Below are positions 25,842 through 38,500 of a stretch of DNA of 64,000 bases, piece by piece. The notes under the pieces were generated by a model, which worked only from the letters and a program-made list of their open reading frames with translations, had not been told where the DNA came from and did no database searches. The position numbers and the translations under genes were made by a program. Position 1 is the stretch's first letter; every line of letters starts with the position of its first letter. Origin of the DNA: a virus; the IMG/VR virus record IMGVR_UViG_3300043449_000492, positions 64,001 through 128,000 of that record; one strand, written 5' to 3'.

Positions 25842-26918
25842 ATGGCCTTAATTGCTATGCCTACCGATACCCACGCTGGTGTCAGAAATGACAATCCGGC
25901 TTTTCAACTATATCAGAAGCGATGCTGGCAATGGTTCTTTGACTATATTGATAAGTATAACATTAAGCATGTAATCCATCTTGGTGACATTTATGATCGT
26001 CGCAAGTATATTAATTTCATGTCTGCGAAGCGACTTCGTGAGGACTTTTTAGAACCTCTAGAGGAGCGGGGAATTGAAACCCATATTATTCAAGGTAATC
26101 ACGATTCTTATTACAAAGATACGCATGAAGTTAATGCACTTGAGGAAGTTATCTCTGGAAGATATCGTTACATTAGGACTCATAGTGTCCCTACTGTTAT
26201 CAGTATTGATGGGCTTGATATTCAATTAATGCCATGGATCACTGACTCTAATCGTCAGGAAGCCTATGAAGCAATCAAAAATCCTAAAGCTTCGATACTC
26301 ATGGGTCATCTTGAGTTAAACGGCTTTACAATGCATAGAGGACTCATATCAGATCATGGACTGGATCGTAAGCTTTTTGAGAAATTCGACGCTGTTTATT
26401 CTGGCCACTATCATCATCGTTCTAGCGTTGGCAACATTACTTATATTGGAGCCTTGGCAGAATATACTTGGCATGATTATGGGGACCCACGAGGATTCAG
26501 CATCCTAGATACTAATACTAGAACTATGGAGTTTGAACAGAATCCACATAAGATGTTTAGACTTGCAAAGTATGATGACATTGCTAATCCTGAGATAATT
26601 GACAAGATTCAAAAGACAGATTTCTCCAAGTATAAGGATTGTTTCGTCAAGCTAGTTGTGGTGAACAAGTCTAATCCATATGCATTCGACCTGTTGTTTG
26701 ATTCGCTTTATAAAGCAGGTCCTCTTGATATTCAGATTGTTGAAGATCCTACTATTCTACTCGACGGTGAAGTCTCTGACGAGATTGACGAAGCGGAAGA
26801 TACAGTAACGATTCTTCGCAAATATATCGATGGTTTGACACTCTCGGTTAATAACGAGAGAATGAAAAAATTCATGATTGATGTTTACAACGAAGCCTTA
26901 CAGGTTGAAACGATATAG
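25842..26918 (+). CDS. gp47: Recombination endonuclease subunit (Mre11/SbcD-like)
   Basis: DTH, HLGD..DRRK, GNHD, GHLEL.GF, SGHYH phosphoesterase motifs. Confidence 0.95.
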
Positions 26919-26928
26919 GAATCGTATT

Positions 26929-28719
26929 ATGAAAAAGTTTGTACCCTTTATTATTTTCTTTTTGGTAGGTGTAGTCCTTTATTGGATGTCACTACCTGCT
27001 GAACACAAGCTAACGAATGAGATTAGCTATTCTGACTTCATCGGTCAGGTAGATCGCAATAACATTCATGATGTTTATATCTCAGGTAATCAGCTTACAG
27101 GACACTTTACTTCTGACAATAGAGAGTTTAAGACTGCTATTGCAGGTATATCTTCACTTCTACCAAAGTTAGAAGAACACAAAGTAAGTATCAAGATTAG
27201 AACAGACGATCCAGAATCTACTTTCTGGACTTCAATGTTTATCAATCTTCTTCCTGTTCTTCTATTCTTCGGTCTTTGGATTTGGTTATCTCGTCGTTCT
27301 GGTACAGGTGGTCCAGGCGGCATCATGGGAATGGGCAAGTCAAAAGCAAAGTTACTGACCGAGTCTGCAACAACAAAGACATTTGAAGATGTTGCTGGTG
27401 TTGATCAAGCTAAAGAAGACTTGCAAGAGATTGTAGAGTTTCTAAGAAATCCTGCTAAGTTTGAAAGACTTGGTGGTAAGATTCCAAAGGGAATTCTACT
27501 CGTTGGTCCTCCAGGCACTGGTAAGACACTATTAGCAAGAGCAGTTGCTGGACAAGCGGGTGTTCCTTTCTTTAGCATTTCAGGATCTGACTTCGTTGAA
27601 ATGTTTGTTGGTGTTGGCGCTTCCCGTGTTAGAGACATGTTCGATCAAGCAAAGAAGAATGCACCATGCATTGTCTTCATTGACGAAATCGATGCTGTTG
27701 GCAGATCACGTGGTTCTGGTATGGGTGGTAATGATGAGCGTGACCAGACACTAAATGCAATGCTTGTTGAAATGGACGGATTCAATGATAATGCGGGTGT
27801 TATTGTTATTGCTGCTACTAACCGTGTGGACGTTCTGGATAAGGCTCTAACAAGACCTGGTCGTTTCGATAGACAGATTCAAGTTCCTAATCCAGACTTT
27901 GTTGGTCGTCAACATATTCTCAAGGTTCACACTCGCAAGGTTCCTGTTGGACCCGATGTTGATCTAAAAGTTATTGCAAAGGGAACATCAGGCTTCTCTG
28001 GTGCTGATCTTGCAAATCTAGTTAACGAAGCTGCTCTCCTTGCTGCTCGACGTTCAAAGCGTATTGTAACAGCACAAGAGTTTGAAGATTCCCGTGATAA
28101 GATTCTAATGGGATCTGAGCATAGAACACTAGCAATGACTGATGAAGAAAAAAGAATGACAGCATATCATGAAGGTGGTCATGCTCTCGTATCACTTAAC
28201 ATGTCAGGCTCTATTCCAATCCACAAAGCAACGATTATCCCCAGGGGCCGTGCATTAGGTATGGTACAGTCTCTACCTGAGCGTGATCAAATCTCACAGT
28301 CATATGAAGAAATGATTGCACACCTTGCTATGGCAATGGGTGGTCGTGCCGCAGAAGAAATCGTCTTCGGTAAAGATAGTGTAACATCTGGTGCTGCATC
28401 TGATATTCAAGCAGCTACTAAGATGGCTAGAGCAATGGTAACTCAGCTAGGATTCTCTCCACTTCTTGGTCGTATGGCTTATGAAGATCCTAATGCTGAT
28501 GCCTTTCGTGGACCTAAGGTTGCAGAAGAAACACAGAAGATTGTGGATATTGAAATCAAGCGCCTCGTTGAGGAAGGTTATTCTACTGCTAGAAGAATCC
28601 TCACTCTTAAGAGAAAAGACCTTGACACACTAGCCGAAGGCCTGTTAGAATATGAGACTCTAACGGGTAAAGAGATTAAGGACTTGTTAGAAGGAAAGAA
28701 ACCTAAGCGAGACTTTTGA
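26929..28719 (+). CDS. ftsH: ATP-dependent membrane zinc metalloprotease FtsH
   Basis: Two TM segments, [64 protein letters not shown]; start reassigned to ATG 26929 behind AGGA. Confidence 0.97.
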
Positions 28720-28904: not shown

Positions 28905-30622
28905 TAACTTTTAATGCGATTAGATGGAAGAACTTTCTATCTTCTGGTAATGTGTTTACTGAAATTAGTTTAGATTCAGCTAAGAATACTCTTATTATAG
29001 GTCACAACGGTGCGGGCAAATCTACCTTTCTAGACGCCCTCACCTTCTCTCTCTTTGGTAAACCTTTTCGTAAGGTGAACAAAGGTAATGTGGTCAACTC
29101 TATCAATAATAAGAACTGTGTGGTCGAGATTGAGTTTACTATCAATACACACAAGTATAAGGTCATCAGAGGTGTTAAGCCAAACATCTTTGAGATTTAC
29201 TGTGATGATATCAAAATCAATCAAGACGCAGCAACTAAGGACTATCAAGAGCATCTGGAGAAGATCATTCTCCGTATGAACTATAAGTCCTTTACACAGG
29301 TTGTCATTCTAGGTTCTGCATCGTTCGTTCCGTTCATGCAGCTATCTGCAAATGATCGACGTTCTGTGATCGAAGACTTGTTGGACATTCAAATCTTTAC
29401 AGCTATGTCAACTGTGGTAAAGAACAAGCTACAGTTGAATCGTGAAACGATTGATAAGAACAAGGTGCTTCTATCTAGCAAAGAAGATAACAAGTCTTAC
29501 ATTGAACGAACACTAGCCTCACTTAAGATTAACAACGAAGAAAAACTAAAAGAGCTAGATGCTAAAAGGCATGAAATAGCAGCTAAACTTCAATTCGAAA
29601 AGATTGATGTTGCTAATCGTCAGGCTGCATTAGATAAAGCCTTAGAGAATGACCTTGATCTATCTCCATTCAAGTCCAAGCATTCTAAGCTTGTTAGCTT
29701 TAGAGCTAAGATGGAAGCAAATCGTGATAAGTATATCAAAGATACTGACTTCTTTGCTGAATCAGGCACATGCCCAACTTGTCGTCAAGACATTGCGCCT
29801 GAGTTTTCTAAGAAAATGATTGATGATAACGAGAAGAAGGTTCATGAACTTTCAGATGGACTAAATAAGGTTGAGCAGCAAATCGACTCTGTTCTAGTAG
29901 AGATAGACGAGATTGAAAAGATACTCACAAATATTAACAACCTTAAGTTGGAACTTTCATCTGCTAAGGCTTCCTATAACAATCTTGTTGATAGGCTTAA
30001 TCAAATTGTGGCTCAGATTGACAGCTTTGCTAAGGCTGACAAAACAACCCAAGATAGCGAACGACAACTCACCGAAGTCGAACATGATATTTCCACCCTC
30101 GAAAAAGAGAAGAAGACCCTTCTAGATGAAAGACAATACATCGACATGGCAACTACCCTTCTCAAAGACGGTGGTATCAAGACACGGATCATCAAGCAGT
30201 ATCTACCTATCATCAACAAGCACATTAACAAGTATCTGGCAAAACTTGGTTTCTTCGTCAATTTCAATATCAACGAATCATTCGAGGAGACCATCAAGTC
30301 TCGTTATAGAGACGAGTTCAGCTATCACAATTTCAGTGAAGGCGAGAAACTACGAATCGATCTTGCTATCCTTCTGACATGGCGCCAAATTGCCAAGATG
30401 AAAAATTCGGTCAACGTCAACATTCTTGTGTTTGACGAAATCCTTGATCGAGCAATGGACACTACAGGAATCGATGAGTTTATTAGGATCATGTGGGATA
30501 TGGGAAATGAAGGGGCCAATATCTTCGTCATTTCCCACAAAGACATTATGGTCGATCGATTCCAGAGAACATTACGATTTGAGAAGATAAAGAACTTTTC
30601 TGTATTGACAAGTGACGGATGA
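28901..30622 (+). CDS. gp46: Recombination ATPase subunit (Rad50/SbcC-like)
   Basis: WKNFLSSGN, GHNGAGKS, CPTC zinc hook, FSEGEK signature, VFDEI Walker B, ISH. Confidence 0.96.
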   Translation: MITFNAIRWKNFLSSGNVFTEISLDSAKNTLIIGHNGAGKSTFLDALTFSLFGKPFRKVNKGNVVNSINNKNCVVEIEFTINTHKYKVIRGVKPNIFEIYCDDIKINQDAATKDYQEHLEKIILRMNYKSFTQVVILGSASFVPFMQLSANDRRSVIEDLLDIQIFTAMSTVVKNKLQLNRETIDKNKVLLSSKEDNKSYIERTLASLKINNEEKLKELDAKRHEIAAKLQFEKIDVANRQAALDKALENDLDLSPFKSKHSKLVSFRAKMEANRDKYIKDTDFFAESGTCPTCRQDIAPEFSKKMIDDNEKKVHELSDGLNKVEQQIDSVLVEIDEIEKILTNINNLKLELSSAKASYNNLVDRLNQIVAQIDSFAKADKTTQDSERQLTEVEHDISTLEKEKKTLLDERQYIDMATTLLKDGGIKTRIIKQYLPIINKHINKYLAKLGFFVNFNINESFEETIKSRYRDEFSYHNFSEGEKLRIDLAILLTWRQIAKMKNSVNVNILVFDEILDRAMDTTGIDEFIRIMWDMGNEGANIFVISHKDIMVDRFQRTLRFEKIKNFSVLTSDG

Positions 30623-30633
30623 TAGTCTATAAT
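30605..30633 (+). promoter_or_regulatory. Consensus sigma70 promoter heading the operon that contains the DNA-modification triad
   Basis: TTGACA-N17-TATAAT exact. Confidence 0.8.
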
Positions 30634-30658: not shown

Positions 30659-30967
30659 ATGGATAAGGATCTCATCCGAGCTATGGCCAAGGCGGAAAGA
30701 ATGATGGACAAAGGAGAGATTCCTTTTGTCTGGGCTCCAAGTGCTAGAGGTATTATGGAGAGACTTGCTTGCACAAATGCTATTATGGAAGAGTTTGGTC
30801 TAGAGAACGCACAGACTGTCAATTCCATGATTCGTGAAGCAATCTTAAATTATAATCTAGAACAGCTTAGACAACGCATCGAAGAAATCACTGACAACCT
30901 TGGACTCGATTCTGAGTTTGACTTTCGCAAACAACTAGATGAGGACGAAGATGATAACAGTAATTAA
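30659..30967 (+). CDS. Hypothetical protein
   Basis: 102 aa with AGGAG RBS. Confidence 0.6.
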   Translation: MDKDLIRAMAKAERMMDKGEIPFVWAPSARGIMERLACTNAIMEEFGLENAQTVNSMIREAILNYNLEQLRQRIEEITDNLGLDSEFDFRKQLDEDEDDNSN

Positions 30968-31061
30968 TACGCCGTTTGGTTACTTCGTCTATAACATAGA
31001 CAATCTTTGGAATGGTCTTAGTCAAATGGGTTGGATGAATGTCGATGAAATGGAATCTTGA
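30951..31061 (+). CDS. Small hypothetical protein (36 aa)
   Basis: Hand-translated MITVINTPFGYFVYNIDNLWNGLSQMGWMNVDEMES; GAGGA RBS; fills the gap. Confidence 0.4.
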   Translation: MITVINTPFGYFVYNIDNLWNGLSQMGWMNVDEMES

Positions 31062-31278
31062 ATTTATTATTGAATGGGTTTCTACCATTCTTGTCATTGT
31101 AGGAGCGATGCTTACCGCTTGGAACATCTATCCTATGAATCTGGCATTTCAGTTTGTTGGAAATGTTGGCTGGTTTGCTGTTGGATATATGTGGAAGAAA
31201 TGGTCACTCATGACCATTCAAGCAGTCATTAGTGTAATCTATATCGCAGGACTTATCTCGAAAGGATATCTTATATGA
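31039..31278 (+). CDS. Small 3-TM membrane protein
   Basis: Three hydrophobic segments; W..T...I.GA.LTA.NIYP.N pattern. Confidence 0.6.
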   Translation: MSMKWNLEFIIEWVSTILVIVGAMLTAWNIYPMNLAFQFVGNVGWFAVGYMWKKWSLMTIQAVISVIYIAGLISKGYLI

Positions 31279-31382
31279 GATATAATCATTGGTTTTGGAA
31301 TAGTAGATTCATGAATCGTGTGGCTGGTTTTCTCGTCTTCCTAAATAGCTATATCTGGAGCAAGCAGTATGGAAAAAACTGA
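31275..31382 (+). CDS. Small hypothetical protein (35 aa)
   Basis: Hand-translated MRYNHWFWNSRFMNRVAGFLVFLNSYIWSKQYGKN; AAGGA RBS; ATGA overlap. Confidence 0.45.
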   Translation: MRYNHWFWNSRFMNRVAGFLVFLNSYIWSKQYGKN

Positions 31383-31548
31383 TTCTACTAAATCTCACTC
31401 ATACTCTCACGATCAGCTACTCATATCTGCTTTTGGACATGAGATTAGAAACACTATTCGTTTAGTAGAAGATACCACTAACGAACTAGCAGTTGTTGAA
31501 GCCTACTTGCAAAAGAGAATTGATGAGATTAAAGAACGCTGGAAGTAA
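31369..31548 (+). CDS. Small hypothetical protein (59 aa)
   Basis: Hand-translated MEKTDSTKSH...YLQKRIDEIKERWK; GGAG RBS. Confidence 0.5.
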   Translation: MEKTDSTKSHSYSHDQLLISAFGHEIRNTIRLVEDTTNELAVVEAYLQKRIDEIKERWK

Positions 31549-31561
31549 CATATGGTGAGCT

Positions 31562-32374
31562 ATGACCTTTGACAAAATTTTAGAAAATGTTTTAGAAGAT
31601 AACTTAAGAGAACAAGATGTAGCTATATTATTCTCAGGTGGTATTGATTCAATATCTTTAGCTTTCGCAGCACATCGATTAGGCAAGAAACTACACTGTT
31701 ACACAATGTATGTGAATGGTGTAGTTTCTAAAGACGCACAGAACGCTATAGATGTTGCAGACAAGTTCGGTTGGGAAATGACTCTCATTGATGTTCCAAT
31801 CGACAATCTAGTAAATGACTTCAAGCATCTAATCAATCATTACGGTTGTAAGAAGAAGACCCAGGTCGAATGTGCCTGGCCTTTTCTGTATGTATATCCT
31901 CATATCAAAGAGAGAGAAATTATCTCTGGTCTAGGAGCAGACGGCTTGCAAGGCTCATCTAAGAAAGTCTGTCTGCATTTTAAAGAACCTAAAGAGTTAT
32001 TCGATTCATATAGAAAAGAGTATTTTGATCTTAACATAACACCAAATCCTGGTGGCATGTTACAGCATGAGCAACTCTGTGAGGAGTTTGAAAAAAAGTT
32101 TGTTGTTCCCTATCATGATGATCGAGTGATAGACTACTTTATGCAGTTCGATTGGTATGACCTAAATAAACCATATCCGAAGAACAAAGTGATTGACGCT
32201 TTTCCAGAGTTTCAACAAATCAAGGTAAGACGACATGAGAACCTGCAACTTGCAGCAGGTATACCGTCTCACTTTGAGAAACTGCTTGACAATCCTGAAG
32301 TAAACGTATATAATAGAAAAAGAGTAATGGATCTCATTCGAGATTGGAATGACATGGGAGATACGCTGTTTTGA
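31562..32374 (+). CDS. Asparagine-synthetase-like ATP-dependent amide ligase (synthetase domain only)
   Basis: PP-loop LFSGGIDS, SGLGADGL, PY.D..V; no N-terminal Cys-glutaminase domain. Confidence 0.8.
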   Translation: MTFDKILENVLEDNLREQDVAILFSGGIDSISLAFAAHRLGKKLHCYTMYVNGVVSKDAQNAIDVADKFGWEMTLIDVPIDNLVNDFKHLINHYGCKKKTQVECAWPFLYVYPHIKEREIISGLGADGLQGSSKKVCLHFKEPKELFDSYRKEYFDLNITPNPGGMLQHEQLCEEFEKKFVVPYHDDRVIDYFMQFDWYDLNKPYPKNKVIDAFPEFQQIKVRRHENLQLAAGIPSHFEKLLDNPEVNVYNRKRVMDLIRDWNDMGDTLF

Positions 32375-33600
32375 AATATGCACCTTATACCGTTGAAGAC
32401 GTAAAGAAGGCATCTGCCCAGAATAAGTTTACAGTTATTAGCTGTTTCGCTGGTGGAGGTGGTAGTTCGACTGGCTATCGTCTAGCTGGCGGAAAGATTC
32501 TTTTAATCAATGAATTTGTTGAATCTGCAATCGAATCCTACAAAGCGAACTATCCTGACACTCCTGTTCTTGTTGATGATATCAAGAAATACACTGGTCA
32601 AGACTTTCTCGACATGGCAAAGATTAAAGCTGGAGAGCTAGACATTCTAGATGGTTCTCCACCATGTTCTGCATTTTCTATCGCAGGTAAGCGTGAGAAA
32701 GGTTGGGCTGGTGCCGAACTAGATACTCGCCGTGCCTATTTTGATGATGATGGTGAGATTGTTCAAGAAGGTGAGCTAGTCGTCAAGGAAGGCATTAAGC
32801 TTTATTCTGATGGCAAGCAAGTAGAAGCAATTGAAGACCTGTTCCATGAGTTCATTCGTGTAGCTGCTGATATCAAGCCTAAGGTTATTGTTGCTGAGAA
32901 CGTGAAAGGTATTACGTTCGGCGAAGCAAAGGGTAAGCTACATGAGTTTATTAAAGCGTTTGAAGATATTGGATATCAGGTAACGTATCGAGTGCTTAAT
33001 GCTGCTGACTATGGCACACCACAAGCAAGAGAGCGAACAATCTTTATTTGTGTTAGAGACGATATAGCTGATGCTGTTGGCTTGAACTTCCTGACACTTG
33101 AAAACATCTTTCCTGATAAGACATATAATGAGCATGTTTCTCTTAAGGAAGCTATTCATGATGTGGTATCTGATCCAGCACAAGAGAAAGAGTTATATGA
33201 TTATGTGCAGAATGGCTTTCAGAAGAAGTGGATTGAAATGCTTCCATTCAATCCTTCTAGGCATATGAAGCCATCTGACAAAGAGTTTATCGCTATCAAT
33301 CCCAAGCGTTCACTTTTCAATATGATTAGACCTGCTCCACATTTGCCTTCTCCAACGATTACACAACGAGGCAATCAGAAGTCAGTGTCTGGTGTATTTC
33401 ACTATGAGAAGAATCGTAAGTTTACTGTACCAGAGCTAAGACGCATCATGTCATTACCTGATGACTATGAGTTAAAAGGTAACTTCGATCAGCAAGCGGA
33501 ACGTATTGGTCGAATGGTCGCACCGAAGATGATGGCAGAAGTTGCAAACGCTATCTATGAAAAAGTATTGAAACCATATAATGAGGCAAACCATGAGTGA
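32371..33600 (+). CDS. C5-cytosine DNA methyltransferase-fold enzyme, predicted carboxymethyltransferase
   Basis: FAGGGG (I), DGSPPCSAFS (IV), ENV (VI), QARER (VIII), motif X reads IGRMV instead of GNxV; TTG start. Confidence 0.85.
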   Translation: MKYAPYTVEDVKKASAQNKFTVISCFAGGGGSSTGYRLAGGKILLINEFVESAIESYKANYPDTPVLVDDIKKYTGQDFLDMAKIKAGELDILDGSPPCSAFSIAGKREKGWAGAELDTRRAYFDDDGEIVQEGELVVKEGIKLYSDGKQVEAIEDLFHEFIRVAADIKPKVIVAENVKGITFGEAKGKLHEFIKAFEDIGYQVTYRVLNAADYGTPQARERTIFICVRDDIADAVGLNFLTLENIFPDKTYNEHVSLKEAIHDVVSDPAQEKELYDYVQNGFQKKWIEMLPFNPSRHMKPSDKEFIAINPKRSLFNMIRPAPHLPSPTITQRGNQKSVSGVFHYEKNRKFTVPELRRIMSLPDDYELKGNFDQQAERIGRMVAPKMMAEVANAIYEKVLKPYNEANHE

Positions 33601-34294
33601 TTATGATTTTACATTTGCACACCGTGACGAAGGCTTTGACAATCACATTGAAAAGTCTATTCGAGGTTATAATTATCTGCATGATGACATTATCAATCTA
33701 TCTCGATACTATGTTGAAGATTGGACAAACGTAGTTGACATTGGTTCTTCTACAGGTAAGACAATCGAGGCAATGGCTATTCAGAACGAACACTTTGCTC
33801 CTTCTGCAACATATGTTGGTGTAGAACTTGCAGAAGGCTTTAGAGTCGAAATGGAAGCCCGCTTTACTCTATTGCGTGAAAGTCTACCAGAGACATTTTT
33901 TGAGTTTGAGTTCGGCGACATTCGTGAATATCTTTTTGATAACTGTTCACTTGTCACTTCTCTATTCACTCTACAGTTTATGCCTCCGAAAGATCGTGAG
34001 AATGTTATTCGTAACATCTATAATGGACTCAATGAAGGCGGTGCATTCATCTTCGCTGAAAAGACTGTAGCTGAAACAGGTCGATTCCAAGACATGTTCA
34101 CATTTACCTACTATGACTATAAGCGTAAGAATTTCACTGAGAAAGATATCATGCAAAAGGAAGTCACGCTTCGTAACATGCTCAAGCCAAACACATGGGC
34201 AGAGATTGAAGACATGCTACGTTCCGCAGGTTTCAAGAAAGTCCAGCCTTTCTGGCAGAACTTTCTTTTTGTTGGTGCAATCGCCATTAAGTAA
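33593..34294 (+). CDS. cmoA: CmoA-like carboxy-S-adenosylmethionine synthase
   Basis: DFTF...FDNHIEKSIRGY, DIGSSTG, FTLQFM, GAFIFAEK, AGF...FWQNFLFVGAIAIK parallel CmoA (WTF..FPDMIQRSVPGY, DLGCSLG, FTLQFL, GALVLSEK, WFQCFNFGSLVALK). Confidence 0.85.
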   Translation: MSDYDFTFAHRDEGFDNHIEKSIRGYNYLHDDIINLSRYYVEDWTNVVDIGSSTGKTIEAMAIQNEHFAPSATYVGVELAEGFRVEMEARFTLLRESLPETFFEFEFGDIREYLFDNCSLVTSLFTLQFMPPKDRENVIRNIYNGLNEGGAFIFAEKTVAETGRFQDMFTFTYYDYKRKNFTEKDIMQKEVTLRNMLKPNTWAEIEDMLRSAGFKKVQPFWQNFLFVGAIAIK

Positions 34295-34307
34295 AGGACA
34301 AGTATTC

Positions 34308-34475
34308 GTGCAGTATTTCAACTTTAATAAACTTGAGAATTACTTTGATATGCTTACATCGTTCTGGATATTCTTCTGCGTTGTAAGTATTGTCTGGATT
34401 CTAGCTTCACTATACTACCATACTACTAAAGACCTTCGCCTGCGACATTCTGACGCACCCAAAAAGCGGGATTGA
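34308..34475 (+). CDS. Possible small membrane protein
   Basis: GTG start behind AAGGA; one hydrophobic segment. Confidence 0.3.
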   Translation: MQYFNFNKLENYFDMLTSFWIFFCVVSIVWILASLYYHTTKDLRLRHSDAPKKRD

Positions 34476-34541: not shown

Positions 34542-34781
34542 ATGTCGAATTCCAATGCCGCTCTCCTCGCCCGTATTGCGGAACTTGAAGCTCAGGTTGC
34601 TAAGACTCCTAAGAAGGCTCTTTCCCTGAAGGTTTCCCAGAAGGGTGCGGTTTCTCTCTATGGCATGGGTCGCTTCCCCGTCACTCTTTACGCTTCCCAG
34701 TGGGAGCAGCTTCTGGGTGAAGCGGAAAAGATCAAGGAATTCCTTGACAAGAACAAGGAAACGCTCGCTGTCAAGGCGTAA
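34542..34781 (+). CDS. Conserved small hypothetical protein (early gene)
   Basis: KVSQKGAVSLYGMGRFPVTLY..QW..LL; AAGGA RBS; strongly biased codons. Confidence 0.7.
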   Translation: MSNSNAALLARIAELEAQVAKTPKKALSLKVSQKGAVSLYGMGRFPVTLYASQWEQLLGEAEKIKEFLDKNKETLAVKA

Positions 34782-34794
34782 GCTGTTGAAAGAT

Positions 34795-34820
34795 AGGGGC
34801 TTTCGAGCCCCTTTTCTTTT
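34795..34820 (+). terminator. Rho-independent terminator
   Basis: AGGGGC-TTTCGA-GCCCCT then TTTCTTTT. Confidence 0.8.
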
Positions 34821-34823
34821 GCC

Positions 34824-34851: not shown

Positions 34852-34878
34852 AAGTGAACAATCGTGAAAGGGCACTTT

Positions 34879-37146
34879 ATGCATTCCACTAATTCTTCCA
34901 ATTCTATTCTCGCCAAGCTTCTAGCTACCGAGAATATTACGGTTCAGCATCAGCCTGGTATTAAGACCGCTATGTTTGACCTTAAGAACCGTGTTCTTAT
35001 GCTTCCCGTCTGGCAAGAGATTACCGAGAACCTTAAGCATCTGCTTATTGGTCATGAAACTGGTCACGCTATTGACACCCCGACTGCCGAAGAATATAAG
35101 GCAGCTTATGAGGGTATTGCCAAACGTGTCTTTGGTGATGAAACCACTTCCCGTCTTACTCGCACGGTTGCTGGCTTTCTTAATGTTATCGAGGACGCTC
35201 GTATCGATAAGCGTCAGAAGCGTCGTTACCCCGGGCTTCGCAAGGACTATCTTCTTGGCTATCAGGAGCTTATCGACCGTGACTTCTTCGGTACGAAGGG
35301 TCGTGACATTAATTCCATGAATTTTATCGACCGCATGAATATCTATTTTAAGGGTGGTAACATTCATGATAATATCGAGTTTACCCCTGCCGAAAAGGCT
35401 TTTCTCAAGCGGGTAGAAAATCTTGAACTGTTTGATGAGACGATTATCCTCACCGAAGAGGTTTATCGTTTCTGTAAAGACCAAATCGAGAATGATATGC
35501 ATATCGATATTGGTATTGGTGAGCCTGAGGAGGGCGAAAGTGATGATGACGGTTTTGATTGGGACGGTGACAGCGATGGCGCTGGTGACTTTGATTCGGA
35601 TGAAGGCTCCGAGTCCGATTCCGATGAAGGTGAGGGTGAAGGCGAGAACGAATCCGACGACGAAGGCGGACTAACTCGTGGTTCGGGTGACCTCGGCGCT
35701 AATAGCAGCGGCAAGTCCAATGCCTCTTCTCATGGTTCTGATGGCGCTGGTGATACCAGTGTTACTGCTCCCGAGTCCGAGACCGATCGTGTCTGGGAAC
35801 AGAAGCGTGAGGAACTGGTTCGTGACTCCAATGCAGACTATATCTATCTGAATATGCCTGAGTTTAACTATGCTCAGAATGTTCACGATTATAAGAAAGT
35901 CCTGAACGATTGGCGTTCCGAACTTGCTATCGGCAAGGCTTCTTATTCTCGTTCCCTCAAGCAGGAAGCTTATGACTTTGCCCGTCGTGAAATGATGGAG
36001 TGGAAGGCTAAAGAAAAGGACACCATCTCGTTCCTTGTCAAGGAGTTCGAGCAGCGTAAGAGTGCTGAGATTTATTCTCGCATTTCGATTGCCAAGACTG
36101 GTGTTATCAATACCAATAAGCTTCATTCATATCGTTACAATGACGATATCTTCCGTCGCTTGACCGTTATCCCTGAGGGTAAGAACCATGGCTTTGTTAT
36201 GTTTCTTGACTGGTCAGGCTCGATGGATTATAACTTGAAGCATACCCTTAAGCAGCTCTTTACGCTTGTTCTCTTTTGCAAGCAGATCCAAGTGCCGTTC
36301 GAGGTGTATGCATTCAAGGACTCGGATGATAGTGGCAAGCCGTCTCCGTGGAATCACGGGAGTGCCGAGAACAGCGTTAACTTCGGTTACCTGACGATCC
36401 GCCAGTTCCTGTCGTCCAAGATGAATATTGCCGAGCTTAATGACGCCATGTCGTTTCTCTGGGCTATGGGTCATGGCTATCGTCTCAACAGCGATCCGCT
36501 CTCTGGCACTCCGCTCAACGAGGCAATCTTTGTTGCTCCGAAGATTGTTAATGACTTCCGTGCTAAGTATAAGCTTGAGGTTGTTAACACGATCATCCTG
36601 ACCGATGGCGAGTCCAATGGTTCTATGGGTCTGGTGAATGACACCGTTCCTCATCAGAGCTATTCGCTCACTGGCGGTATGCGTAAGCGGTATTTCTTCT
36701 ATAATGACAAGGAGACTGGTAAGACCGTTGAGTATGATCCGCATGGTTGGGGTCAGGCTGGTCAGTCTAACACCAACGTCCTGCTTCGTTTGCTCAAAGA
36801 AAAGACTGGTTGTAATCTAATCGGTTTCTTCCTGTTCGGTGAGTCCTGGCGTACCTTCACTTATCGCTTTAATCTTACTGGCAACTATGAGTATCTGCAG
36901 AAAGTTACCAAGTTCTGGAAAGAGAACAAGTTCTATCCTGTCAAGAGTGAAGGTTATGATGATTATTTCGTCATTGATACCCGTGCCCTTGCTGTGACCG
37001 ATAACAACCTGGAGATTGATACGTCCAAGTCGACCAAACAGATGGCGAAAGCCTTCTCCAAGTTTGCGTCGAAGAAAGCCGTAAATCGTGTTCTCCTGCG
37101 TAATTTCATCGATCACGTTACAGGAAAAGCAAAGAAGGTAGCGTAA
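34879..37146 (+). CDS. CobT-like metallopeptidase-motif/vWA protein
   Basis: LAKLLATENI, HETGH (HExxH), NVIEDARI, acidic linker, MIDAS DWSGSM, GTPL, LTDGE. Confidence 0.85.
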   Translation: MHSTNSSNSILAKLLATENITVQHQPGIKTAMFDLKNRVLMLPVWQEITENLKHLLIGHETGHAIDTPTAEEYKAAYEGIAKRVFGDETTSRLTRTVAGFLNVIEDARIDKRQKRRYPGLRKDYLLGYQELIDRDFFGTKGRDINSMNFIDRMNIYFKGGNIHDNIEFTPAEKAFLKRVENLELFDETIILTEEVYRFCKDQIENDMHIDIGIGEPEEGESDDDGFDWDGDSDGAGDFDSDEGSESDSDEGEGEGENESDDEGGLTRGSGDLGANSSGKSNASSHGSDGAGDTSVTAPESETDRVWEQKREELVRDSNADYIYLNMPEFNYAQNVHDYKKVLNDWRSELAIGKASYSRSLKQEAYDFARREMMEWKAKEKDTISFLVKEFEQRKSAEIYSRISIAKTGVINTNKLHSYRYNDDIFRRLTVIPEGKNHGFVMFLDWSGSMDYNLKHTLKQLFTLVLFCKQIQVPFEVYAFKDSDDSGKPSPWNHGSAENSVNFGYLTIRQFLSSKMNIAELNDAMSFLWAMGHGYRLNSDPLSGTPLNEAIFVAPKIVNDFRAKYKLEVVNTIILTDGESNGSMGLVNDTVPHQSYSLTGGMRKRYFFYNDKETGKTVEYDPHGWGQAGQSNTNVLLRLLKEKTGCNLIGFFLFGESWRTFTYRFNLTGNYEYLQKVTKFWKENKFYPVKSEGYDDYFVIDTRALAVTDNNLEIDTSKSTKQMAKAFSKFASKKAVNRVLLRNFIDHVTGKAKKVA

Positions 37147-37167
37147 AAACAACGGTTTAGAGGGGGC

Positions 37168-37196
37168 TTGACATTCCTCTCTAAACCAGCTATAAT
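37168..37196 (+). promoter_or_regulatory. Consensus sigma70 promoter with -35 inside an inverted repeat
   Basis: TTGACA-N17-TATAAT exact. Confidence 0.8.
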
Positions 37197-37231
37197 GTGT
37201 CATAATCGAAATCGTGAAAGGAATAGATTGT

Positions 37232-38500
37232 ATGGCTAAGTCTAATATGTCCACCCGTGACCAGTTCCTCGATAAGGTTCGTTTCGAGTTCGGAGCTATC
37301 ACTACCATCACCCGTACCCAGGTCAAGCAGGTTTGCGACAAGTATGACCTGTCGTTCCCCACGTGGCTTCGCAAAGATGCCACTCGTCAGGTTGCCCGCG
37401 GTGTGTATGCTCTTACCGAGCATGGCGCTACTCCCGCTGCGCCTGTGACTGCTACCGCTATCAAGGCTGCAAAGTCTAAGGCTCCGAGAGTGTCAAAAAA
37501 GGTCGCTCCGACCAAGACCGCTAACATTCAGTCGAATGTCCCCGTGGTCGATAGCATCGTGGCTATGGCTTCGACGGTTGCCATGTCGGCTCCGTCCACT
37601 TCAGCTTCGGCCGATGTTTCGCTCGTTCCTGAAAAGTCTTCGGGATACGTTCCGTTCGGTAACTTTGCCGACGTTCGTTCCATTATCAAATCTCGTAAGT
37701 TTTACCCGGCTTACATCACTGGTCTTTCTGGTAACGGTAAGACGATGATGGTCGAGCAGGTTTGTGCTGCTGAAAAGCGTGAATGTGTCCGAGTTAACGT
37801 GACCATTGAGACCGACGAAGATGATCTTATCGGCGGCTTCCGTCTTGTTGACGGACACACCGTGTGGCAGGACGGTCCTGTTATCATCGCCATGCAGCGT
37901 GGTGCGATCCTGCTTCTCGACGAGGTTGATCTTGGCTCTAACAAGCTTATGTGTCTCCAGCCTGTCCTCGAAGGCAAGTCGGTCTTCCTTAAGAAGATTA
38001 ATCGTTTGGTTCATCCTGAGGCAGGGTTCAACGTCATTGCGACTGCGAACACCAAGGGTAAGGGTTCCGACGATGGTCGCTTCATTGGCACCAACGTAAT
38101 GAATGAGGCGTTCCTTGAGCGTTTCAGCATCACGATGGAGCAGGAGTACCCTGCGGCTAAGACCGAGACGAAGATCCTTAACAATGTTCTAGGTGCTTCT
38201 AACATTGAAGCTAAGGAGTTTGTTGAGAAGCTTGTCACCTGGGCTGATGTTATCCGTAAGTCATTCTACGAGGGTGCTCTTTCGGAAATCATTTCGACCC
38301 GTCGTCTCGTCCATATCTGCGAGGCTTATGCTATCTTTAACCAGAACCGTGTGAAGGCAATTGAGCTGTGCCTTAACCGCTTCGACGTGGACACCAAGAA
38401 TGCTTTCATGGAACTCTATAAGAAGGTCGATGAGACCGTTGATCCGACTGCTGTTTCGGAATCGGAAGCAGCCCCTGTGGGTGAAGAGGTTGCTTTCTGA
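37232..38500 (+). CDS. CobS/MoxR-like AAA+ ATPase
   Basis: GLSGNGKT, ETDEDDLIGG, LLLDEVD, ANTKGKGSDDGRFIGTN, EAFLERF, STRRL; partner of the upstream vWA protein. Confidence 0.9.
   Translation: MAKSNMSTRDQFLDKVRFEFGAITTITRTQVKQVCDKYDLSFPTWLRKDATRQVARGVYALTEHGATPAAPVTATAIKAAKSKAPRVSKKVAPTKTANIQSNVPVVDSIVAMASTVAMSAPSTSASADVSLVPEKSSGYVPFGNFADVRSIIKSRKFYPAYITGLSGNGKTMMVEQVCAAEKRECVRVNVTIETDEDDLIGGFRLVDGHTVWQDGPVIIAMQRGAILLLDEVDLGSNKLMCLQPVLEGKSVFLKKINRLVHPEAGFNVIATANTKGKGSDDGRFIGTNVMNEAFLERFSITMEQEYPAAKTETKILNNVLGASNIEAKEFVEKLVTWADVIRKSFYEGALSEIISTRRLVHICEAYAIFNQNRVKAIELCLNRFDVDTKNAFMELYKKVDETVDPTAVSESEAAPVGEEVAF

Follow-up and report, generated by a model that had tools for sequence, protein, structure and literature searches.

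A carboxymethyl group joined to glycine on the cytosines of phage DNA was described in December 2025 for Synechococcus phage S-B43 (MN018232), in which three enzymes make the modified base (Yang et al., Nat Commun 2025; PMC12783734). SpCmoA is a fast synthase of carboxy-S-adenosylmethionine (Cx-SAM), with a measured kcat of 2.33 per s. SpCmoX makes 5-carboxymethylcytosine (5cxmC) at GC sites; the wild-type enzyme accepts Cx-SAM and does not accept S-adenosylmethionine (SAM), and its Arg350 contacts the Cx-SAM carboxylate (PDB 8YF3). SpCmoY, an asparagine synthetase homologue, joins glycine with the use of ATP, giving 5-glycylcarboxymethylcytosine (5gcxmC), which was found in virion DNA; the glycine amide nucleoside, 5gcxmdC, has an m/z of 343.1. 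Mining of IMG/VR v4, UniProt, and MGnify in the same study yielded 5,615 CmoX candidates, defined by an SPPC motif together with an Arg at the position of R350, 4,257 CmoA proteins, and 2,251 ligases; some ligase clusters had pocket residues of their own, and their amines were not identified (PMC12783734). Our literature search found no further paper on a natural CmoA-CmoX-CmoY system. Here we describe a related locus in the window, that is, the whole 64,000-nucleotide stretch of DNA that was analysed, which covers bases 64001-128000 of a complete 169,069-bp IMG/VR virus genome with terminal repeats (IMGVR_UViG_3300043449_000492). With a probability of about 0.8, the three genes at positions 31562-34294 constitute an S-B43-type CmoA-CmoX-CmoY operon for DNA hypermodification. 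The locus is thus an uncharacterised further member of the published system, not a new one, with modest variant features.

The individual proteins also have counterparts in other described systems. According to the S-B43 paper, which cites Wang and Kohli 2021 (PMC12783734), the engineered enzyme M.MpeI N374K has the cytosine C5-methyltransferase fold, and a basic residue in place of the motif X Asn allows it to use Cx-SAM and form 5cxmC. As it is cited there, this enzyme differs from the window CmoX in being engineered, in carrying Lys instead of Arg, in targeting CG, and in having no partner Cx-SAM synthase or ligase. The bacterial CmoA/CmoB pathway to 5-carboxymethoxyuridine at position 34 of tRNA (cmo5U34) shares CmoA with the window; the alignment to the E. 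coli CmoA structure (4GEK) is full-length (residues 9-237, E 1e-23), and the same cofactor would be expected from SAM and prephenate. In that pathway, however, the acceptor is 5-hydroxyuridine (ho5U) in tRNA and CmoB is the enzyme that follows, whereas the acceptor here would be C5 of cytosine in DNA. Class B asparagine synthetases (1CT9, 1MC1, and 1Q19) resemble the window CmoY in the fold of the synthetase domain, the PP-loop, and the acyl-adenylate chemistry expected from them. In contrast to these enzymes, CmoY has no N-terminal glutaminase, its substrate carboxylate would lie on a modified base in duplex DNA, and the identity is 14-20%.

Gene structure and diagnostic residues

The locus consists of three open reading frames (ORFs) on the plus strand. 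These genes and the features of CmoX discussed below are as follows.

31562..32374, plus strand: cmoY, putative ATP-dependent amide ligase of the asparagine synthetase type, synthetase domain only, 270 amino acids (PF00733, SpCmoY homology, and fold)
32371..33600, plus strand: cmoX, DNA cytosine C5-carboxymethyltransferase homologue, 409 amino acids, TTG start (PF00145, 8YF3, and SpCmoX homology)
32656..32667, plus strand: codons of the SPPC motif, S96-P97-P98-C99, with the catalytic Cys, aligned to S95-C98 of SpCmoX
32707..32796, plus strand: 30-residue insertion, amino acids 113-142 of CmoX, in the loop that joins the catalytic Cys motif to ENV, where SpCmoX has 11 residues
33511..33513, plus strand: codon of Arg381 in motif X (GRMV), aligned to R350 of SpCmoX; HhaI methylase has Asn304 there
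33581..34294, plus strand: cmoA, carboxy-SAM synthase homologue, 237 amino acids from 33581 or 233 amino acids from the ATG at 33593 (TIGR00740, 4GEK, and SpCmoA homology)

The original prediction had described three overlapping, co-oriented genes for an AsnB-like PP-loop ligase, a C5-methyltransferase-fold enzyme, and a CmoA-like protein, and ORFs with matching domains were found at exactly these positions. It had also suspected that a similar triad might already have been reported in phages, which was correct, as the S-B43 paper demonstrates. The TTG start codon of cmoX and the TGA stop codon of cmoY share the four bases TTGA, and cmoA begins inside the 3' end of cmoX, with an overlap of 20 nucleotides (nt) from 33581 or 8 nt from 33593. 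The second in-frame ATG, at 33593, fits the N-terminus of the S-B43 protein better than 33581 and is the more likely start. With either ATG, cmoA starts within cmoX, and the three genes are translationally coupled.

The window proteins belong to the same three families as those of S-B43, with identities of 57% for CmoA (E 3e-93), 50% for CmoX (E 6e-128), and 50% for CmoY (237 bits, E 1e-82). The second ORF matched the C-5 DNA methylase family (PF00145, E 8.9e-54), and its top match among solved structures in a PDB sequence search was SpCmoX (8YF3, E 2.3e-108). The next-best match was HaeIII methylase at only 8e-20, the HaeIII and HhaI methylases both lying near 1e-19. CmoX contains the motifs of C5-methyltransferases (F26-A-G-G-G-G, P98-C99, E176-N-V, and Q218-x-R220-x-R222), and both published marks of CmoX proteins, SPPC and the R350-equivalent Arg, are present. 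In the alignment to 8YF3, R381 in ERIGRMVAP stood opposite R350 in ERVGRMVPP. SPPC, ENV, QxRxR, and R381 were each kept in at least 97% of 82 aligned CmoX homologues. EFI-style alignment scores were calculated as our approximation of the published sequence similarity network (SSN), which they do not reproduce. The approximate score of CmoX against SpCmoX was 104, above the SSN threshold of 70 used in the paper, and by this measure CmoX should sit in the SpCmoX sequence cluster.

The first ORF matched the Asn_synthase family (PF00733, E 4.5e-14) over residues 17-131, with weaker PP-loop matches to QueC and NAD synthase, and a Pfam search gave no glutaminase (GATase) domain match in CmoY; a ligase made up of the synthetase domain only, with no glutaminase, is also what S-B43 encodes. 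The approximate EFI score against SpCmoY was 66.5, above the published threshold of 56 (1e-56), so that CmoY should likewise fall in the cluster of SpCmoY. No close solved relative was found by sequence, the PDB search giving only a weak match to NAD synthetase (E 0.0014), and a fold search was therefore needed to place the protein. The best folds for the AlphaFold model were beta-lactam synthetase (1MC1), AsnB (1CT9), and human asparagine synthetase (ASNS), with template modelling (TM) scores of 0.73-0.75, normalised to the query over the whole protein. Carbapenam synthetase (1Q19) was matched as well, and the matched regions were the C-terminal synthetase domains (1MC1, 1CT9, and 8SUE). The PP-loop of CmoY reads S25-G-G-I-D29-S30 (SGGxDS), and S25, G27, D29, and S30 were invariant in 31 sequences. 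Across 65 sequences including SpCmoY, 41 positions were conserved at 97% or more, among them the charged residues K98, K99, E103, D127, K134, R151, K207, H225, R252, and R254.

The third ORF hit generic class I methyltransferase domains in Pfam and the CmoA equivalog TIGR00740 in NCBIfam (E 8.9e-32).

Conservation of the triad and the proposed use of Cx-SAM

When the 2.7-kb region was compared by megablast with 50,697 phage records, no match was returned, and a protein-level search was needed. We collected 80 related IMG/VR loci (61-88% identity) from a CmoX scan and placed the three proteins by tblastn. The original prediction had named conservation of the triad in gene neighbourhoods as a check, and all three genes were found on one strand in 66 of the 80 loci, several of the others being cut by contig ends. 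The gene order among these 66 complete loci was Y-X-A in 47, X-Y-A in 15, and X-A...Y in 4, and CmoA lay beside CmoX in 77 of the 80. The surroundings were also kept: a gp46/SbcC-like gene was found on the 5' side in 53 loci, and the genes for a 760-residue phrog_459 protein and a CobS-like ATPase on the 3' side in 41 and 32 loci, respectively.

The terminase, sheath, portal, scaffold, and gp23-type capsid proteins identified the virus as a T4-like myovirus. Its capsid protein was 60-65% identical alike to those of Pelagibacter phage Mosig, Methylophilales phage Melnitz, and several cyanomyoviruses, so the host assignment was not narrowed. The original prediction had seen no CmoB in the window; a search with TIGR00452 extended this absence to the complete genome, indicating that Cx-SAM has no phage-encoded RNA enzyme as its user. 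S-B43 is likewise a T4-like myovirus without CmoB, and its three genes are also adjacent and share one orientation. The complete genome also contained no second C5-methyltransferase-fold gene besides cmoX, no GATase_7 glutaminase gene, no chorismate mutase, and no ParB_N domain protein. Because there is no phage chorismate mutase, prephenate would have to be supplied by the host. The analysis thus established how the genes are arranged, that they are orthologous to those of S-B43 and linked in relatives, that the diagnostic residues are kept, and that CmoB is absent.

These observations bear on a different explanation of the locus, in which CmoX is a conventional methyltransferase that forms 5-methylcytosine, the CmoA of the phage feeds the host CmoB for cmo5U34 in tRNA, and the ligase is unrelated. 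The canonical role of CmoA is indeed in tRNA modification, and Pfam and NCBIfam label CmoX only as a C5 DNA methylase. We nevertheless consider this explanation very improbable. The phage has no CmoB, and the genes are translationally coupled and were inherited together in the 66 loci mentioned above. Furthermore, motif X carries Arg381 in place of the Asn that accommodates SAM; SpCmoX, which uses only Cx-SAM, has the same substitution (PMC12783734), and this Arg is nearly invariant across the 82 homologues.

If the locus is instead an operon of the S-B43 kind, a pathway can be proposed by analogy with S-B43 biochemistry, from which each catalytic activity, the target motif, the role against restriction, and the choice of amine are carried over. 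CmoA would convert SAM and host prephenate to Cx-SAM. CmoX would use ordinary C5-methyltransferase chemistry, with Cys99 attacking C6 of a flipped-out cytosine, and would transfer a carboxymethyl instead of a methyl group onto C5 in double-stranded phage DNA because Arg381 is proposed to hold the Cx-SAM carboxylate, giving 5cxmC. CmoY would then adenylate the carboxylate of 5cxmC with ATP and join an amine, most likely glycine, yielding 5gcxmC. The bulky base would be expected to protect the phage DNA against restriction enzymes of the host. The route from Cx-SAM through 5cxmC, made post-replicatively, to an ATP-dependent amidation had been put forward in the original prediction, and orthology to the S-B43 enzymes together with SPPC and Arg381 speaks for it. 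The primary amide suggested there as the product is less likely, as the known S-B43 product is the glycine amide and no glutaminase is encoded here.

Divergence from S-B43, target motif, and amine

Several observations weigh against the assignment to the S-B43 kind. The gene order is A-Y-X in S-B43 and Y-X-A here. The CmoA score against TIGR00740, 110.7 bits, lies below the curated cut-off of 193.3, and the score against NF011995 was 86.7, with a cut-off of 285. Both models describe the bacterial tRNA-pathway enzyme, and the active phage enzyme SpCmoA is itself only 27.9% identical to EcCmoA (PMC12783734). The activity of the window CmoA is suggested by its likeness to SpCmoA. A score below the cut-off might also point to a decayed or inactive remnant in which at least one enzyme no longer works. 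It is extremely unlikely that the cluster is of this sort, as none of the three frames is broken or shortened in comparison with the active proteins of S-B43, the catalytic motifs have been kept, the models are confident (predicted local distance difference test, pLDDT, 93.3 for CmoY and 88.7 for CmoX), the genome is complete, and the locus lies at a conserved site in many relatives.

The remaining points against an operon of the S-B43 kind concern CmoX and CmoY. The variable target-recognition region of CmoX, amino acids 233-345, is only 36% identical to that of SpCmoX, whereas the catalytic motifs are 66-67% identical, and 12 residues of the window protein within this region face gaps in the SpCmoX alignment. 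In addition, the conserved 30-residue insertion adjoins the catalytic loop. Among the 82 homologues, this loop was 30-32 residues long with a conserved sequence in 63 and only 3 residues long in 18; in the window protein it was modelled as short beta strands with low to moderate confidence (pLDDT 55-78). Because the target-recognition region has diverged and the insertion lies beside the catalytic loop, the GC specificity may differ from that of SpCmoX. If the motif is GC, the genome contains 7,487 GpC targets, corresponding to 21.8% of all cytosines. The observed/expected ratio of GpC in the genome was 1.07, a value that is uninformative on target choice.

Glycine as the amine of CmoY is suggested by the overall similarity to SpCmoY. 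The same route to 5cxmC could be followed by ligation of another amine, such as a different alpha-amino acid, a polyamine, or free ammonia, so that the final base would not be 5gcxmC. This is a possibility to which we give limited weight. The identity between CmoY and SpCmoY is only 50%, the published survey contains the ligase clusters with distinct pocket residues described above (PMC12783734), and the capsid protein is equally close to those of Pelagibacter, Methylophilales, and cyanophage T4-like phages. S-B43 is a 214-kb member of the Kyanoviridae, whereas the window comes from a 169-kb uncultured phage known from sequence alone, which is not a close relative. On the other hand, the similarity of the two ligases is well over the published cluster threshold, and nothing in the 41 conserved positions, many of them charged, indicates a remodelled pocket. 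Glutamine-derived ammonia is unlikely because neither a glutaminase domain nor a glutaminase gene was found. Taken together, the conserved beta-rich insertion, the diverged target-recognition region, and the 50% identity of CmoY make it conceivable, though doubtful, that the diverged CmoX and CmoY write a non-GC motif or attach a different amine. If so, the locus would encode an undescribed cytosine hypermodification in T4-like phages of non-cyanobacterial hosts.

Variants, genomic setting, and implications

Some of the related loci differ in gene content from the CmoA-CmoX-CmoY triad of the window. In about ten of them (L066:6140-7303, L069, L074, and L077-L083), a second CmoX paralogue of 387 amino acids is inserted between CmoX and CmoA. 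The paralogue contains SPPC and the Arg of motif X, and its identity to the window CmoX is 51%, suggesting that a single phage may have two carboxymethyltransferases that differ in their target motifs. Some relatives have no CmoY within 5 kb and contain an ORF of about 180 amino acids between CmoX and CmoA (L040:6205-6747 and L072:6241-6801), with no Pfam match; it could encode a different enzyme acting on 5cxmC or be unrelated. In Alexandravirus jumbo phages, CmoY homologues (36-39% identity) adjoin genes for a "putative methyltransferase" and a DUF1611 protein, as in Dickeya phage AD1 (L003; MH460463, 12233-14932) and 48 Erwinia jumbo phage records. No C5-methyltransferase was annotated within about 5 kb on either side of these homologues, and the loci may encode a similar modification pathway that uses another writer enzyme. 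ParB_N proteins, looked for in the window's genome as described above, were found on many contigs in the published survey (PMC12783734).

The window locus lies between the gp46/SbcC-like gene and the phrog_459/CobS-like pair, whereas the S-B43 locus is near a primase-helicase. The following features were found around the triad by pattern matching.

30605..30633, plus strand: promoter-like site with a perfect sigma-70 consensus, TTGACA-17-TATAAT (12/12 match), just 3' of the gp46/SbcC-like gene
32286..32314, plus strand: second perfect sigma-70 promoter-like site (12/12 match), within the 3' end of cmoY, 57 nt 5' of the cmoX start
34795..34822, plus strand: terminator-like hairpin with a 7-bp stem containing 5 G-C pairs, a TTCG loop, and a T-rich tail

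Both 12/12 matches to the sigma-70 consensus fall within 1.7 kb. The first site is a candidate early promoter of a unit comprising the triad and three small ORFs, and the hairpin is a candidate end of the transcription unit. As pattern matches, the sigma-70 sites and the hairpin are compatible with an early transcription unit across the triad. The three small upstream ORFs (30659-30967, 31039-31278, and 31369-31548) were rejected as parts of the system, since they recurred in only 2 of the 80 loci, and the 79-residue ORF at 34542-34781 was rejected as well, recurring in none. The ORF at 34113-34475, which overlaps cmoA in another frame, was taken as a shadow frame because its apparent homologues sit on the CmoA coding region of relatives.

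Just 5' of the gp46/SbcC-like gene, at 26878-28719, the window encodes a full-length FtsH homologue of 613 amino acids (FtsH_ext, AAA, and Peptidase_M41 domains), and a copy with 86% identity is present in the related locus L038. On the other side, the 34864-38500 region holds the 760-residue phrog_459 "peptidase", which has a long acidic stretch rich in Asp, Glu, Gly, and Ser, and the CobS-like AAA ATPase (phrog_249). The GC content of this region is 46-49%, compared with about 40% elsewhere.

The locus alone raises no new question. Its practical value lies in natural enzyme variants for DNA-labelling chemistry, namely CmoX with the loop insertion, the tandem CmoX paralogues, and the loci that have no CmoY. 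Caution is also warranted in handling the DNA of such phages, as restriction enzymes may fail to cut it and sequencing may give unusual results. For the biology of these viruses, the finding means that the genes of a carboxymethylcytosine and glycine pathway are present, intact and at a conserved site, in a broad uncultured group of T4-like phages beyond the one cyanophage studied so far, consistent with the wide distribution claimed for the pathway in the S-B43 paper (PMC12783734).

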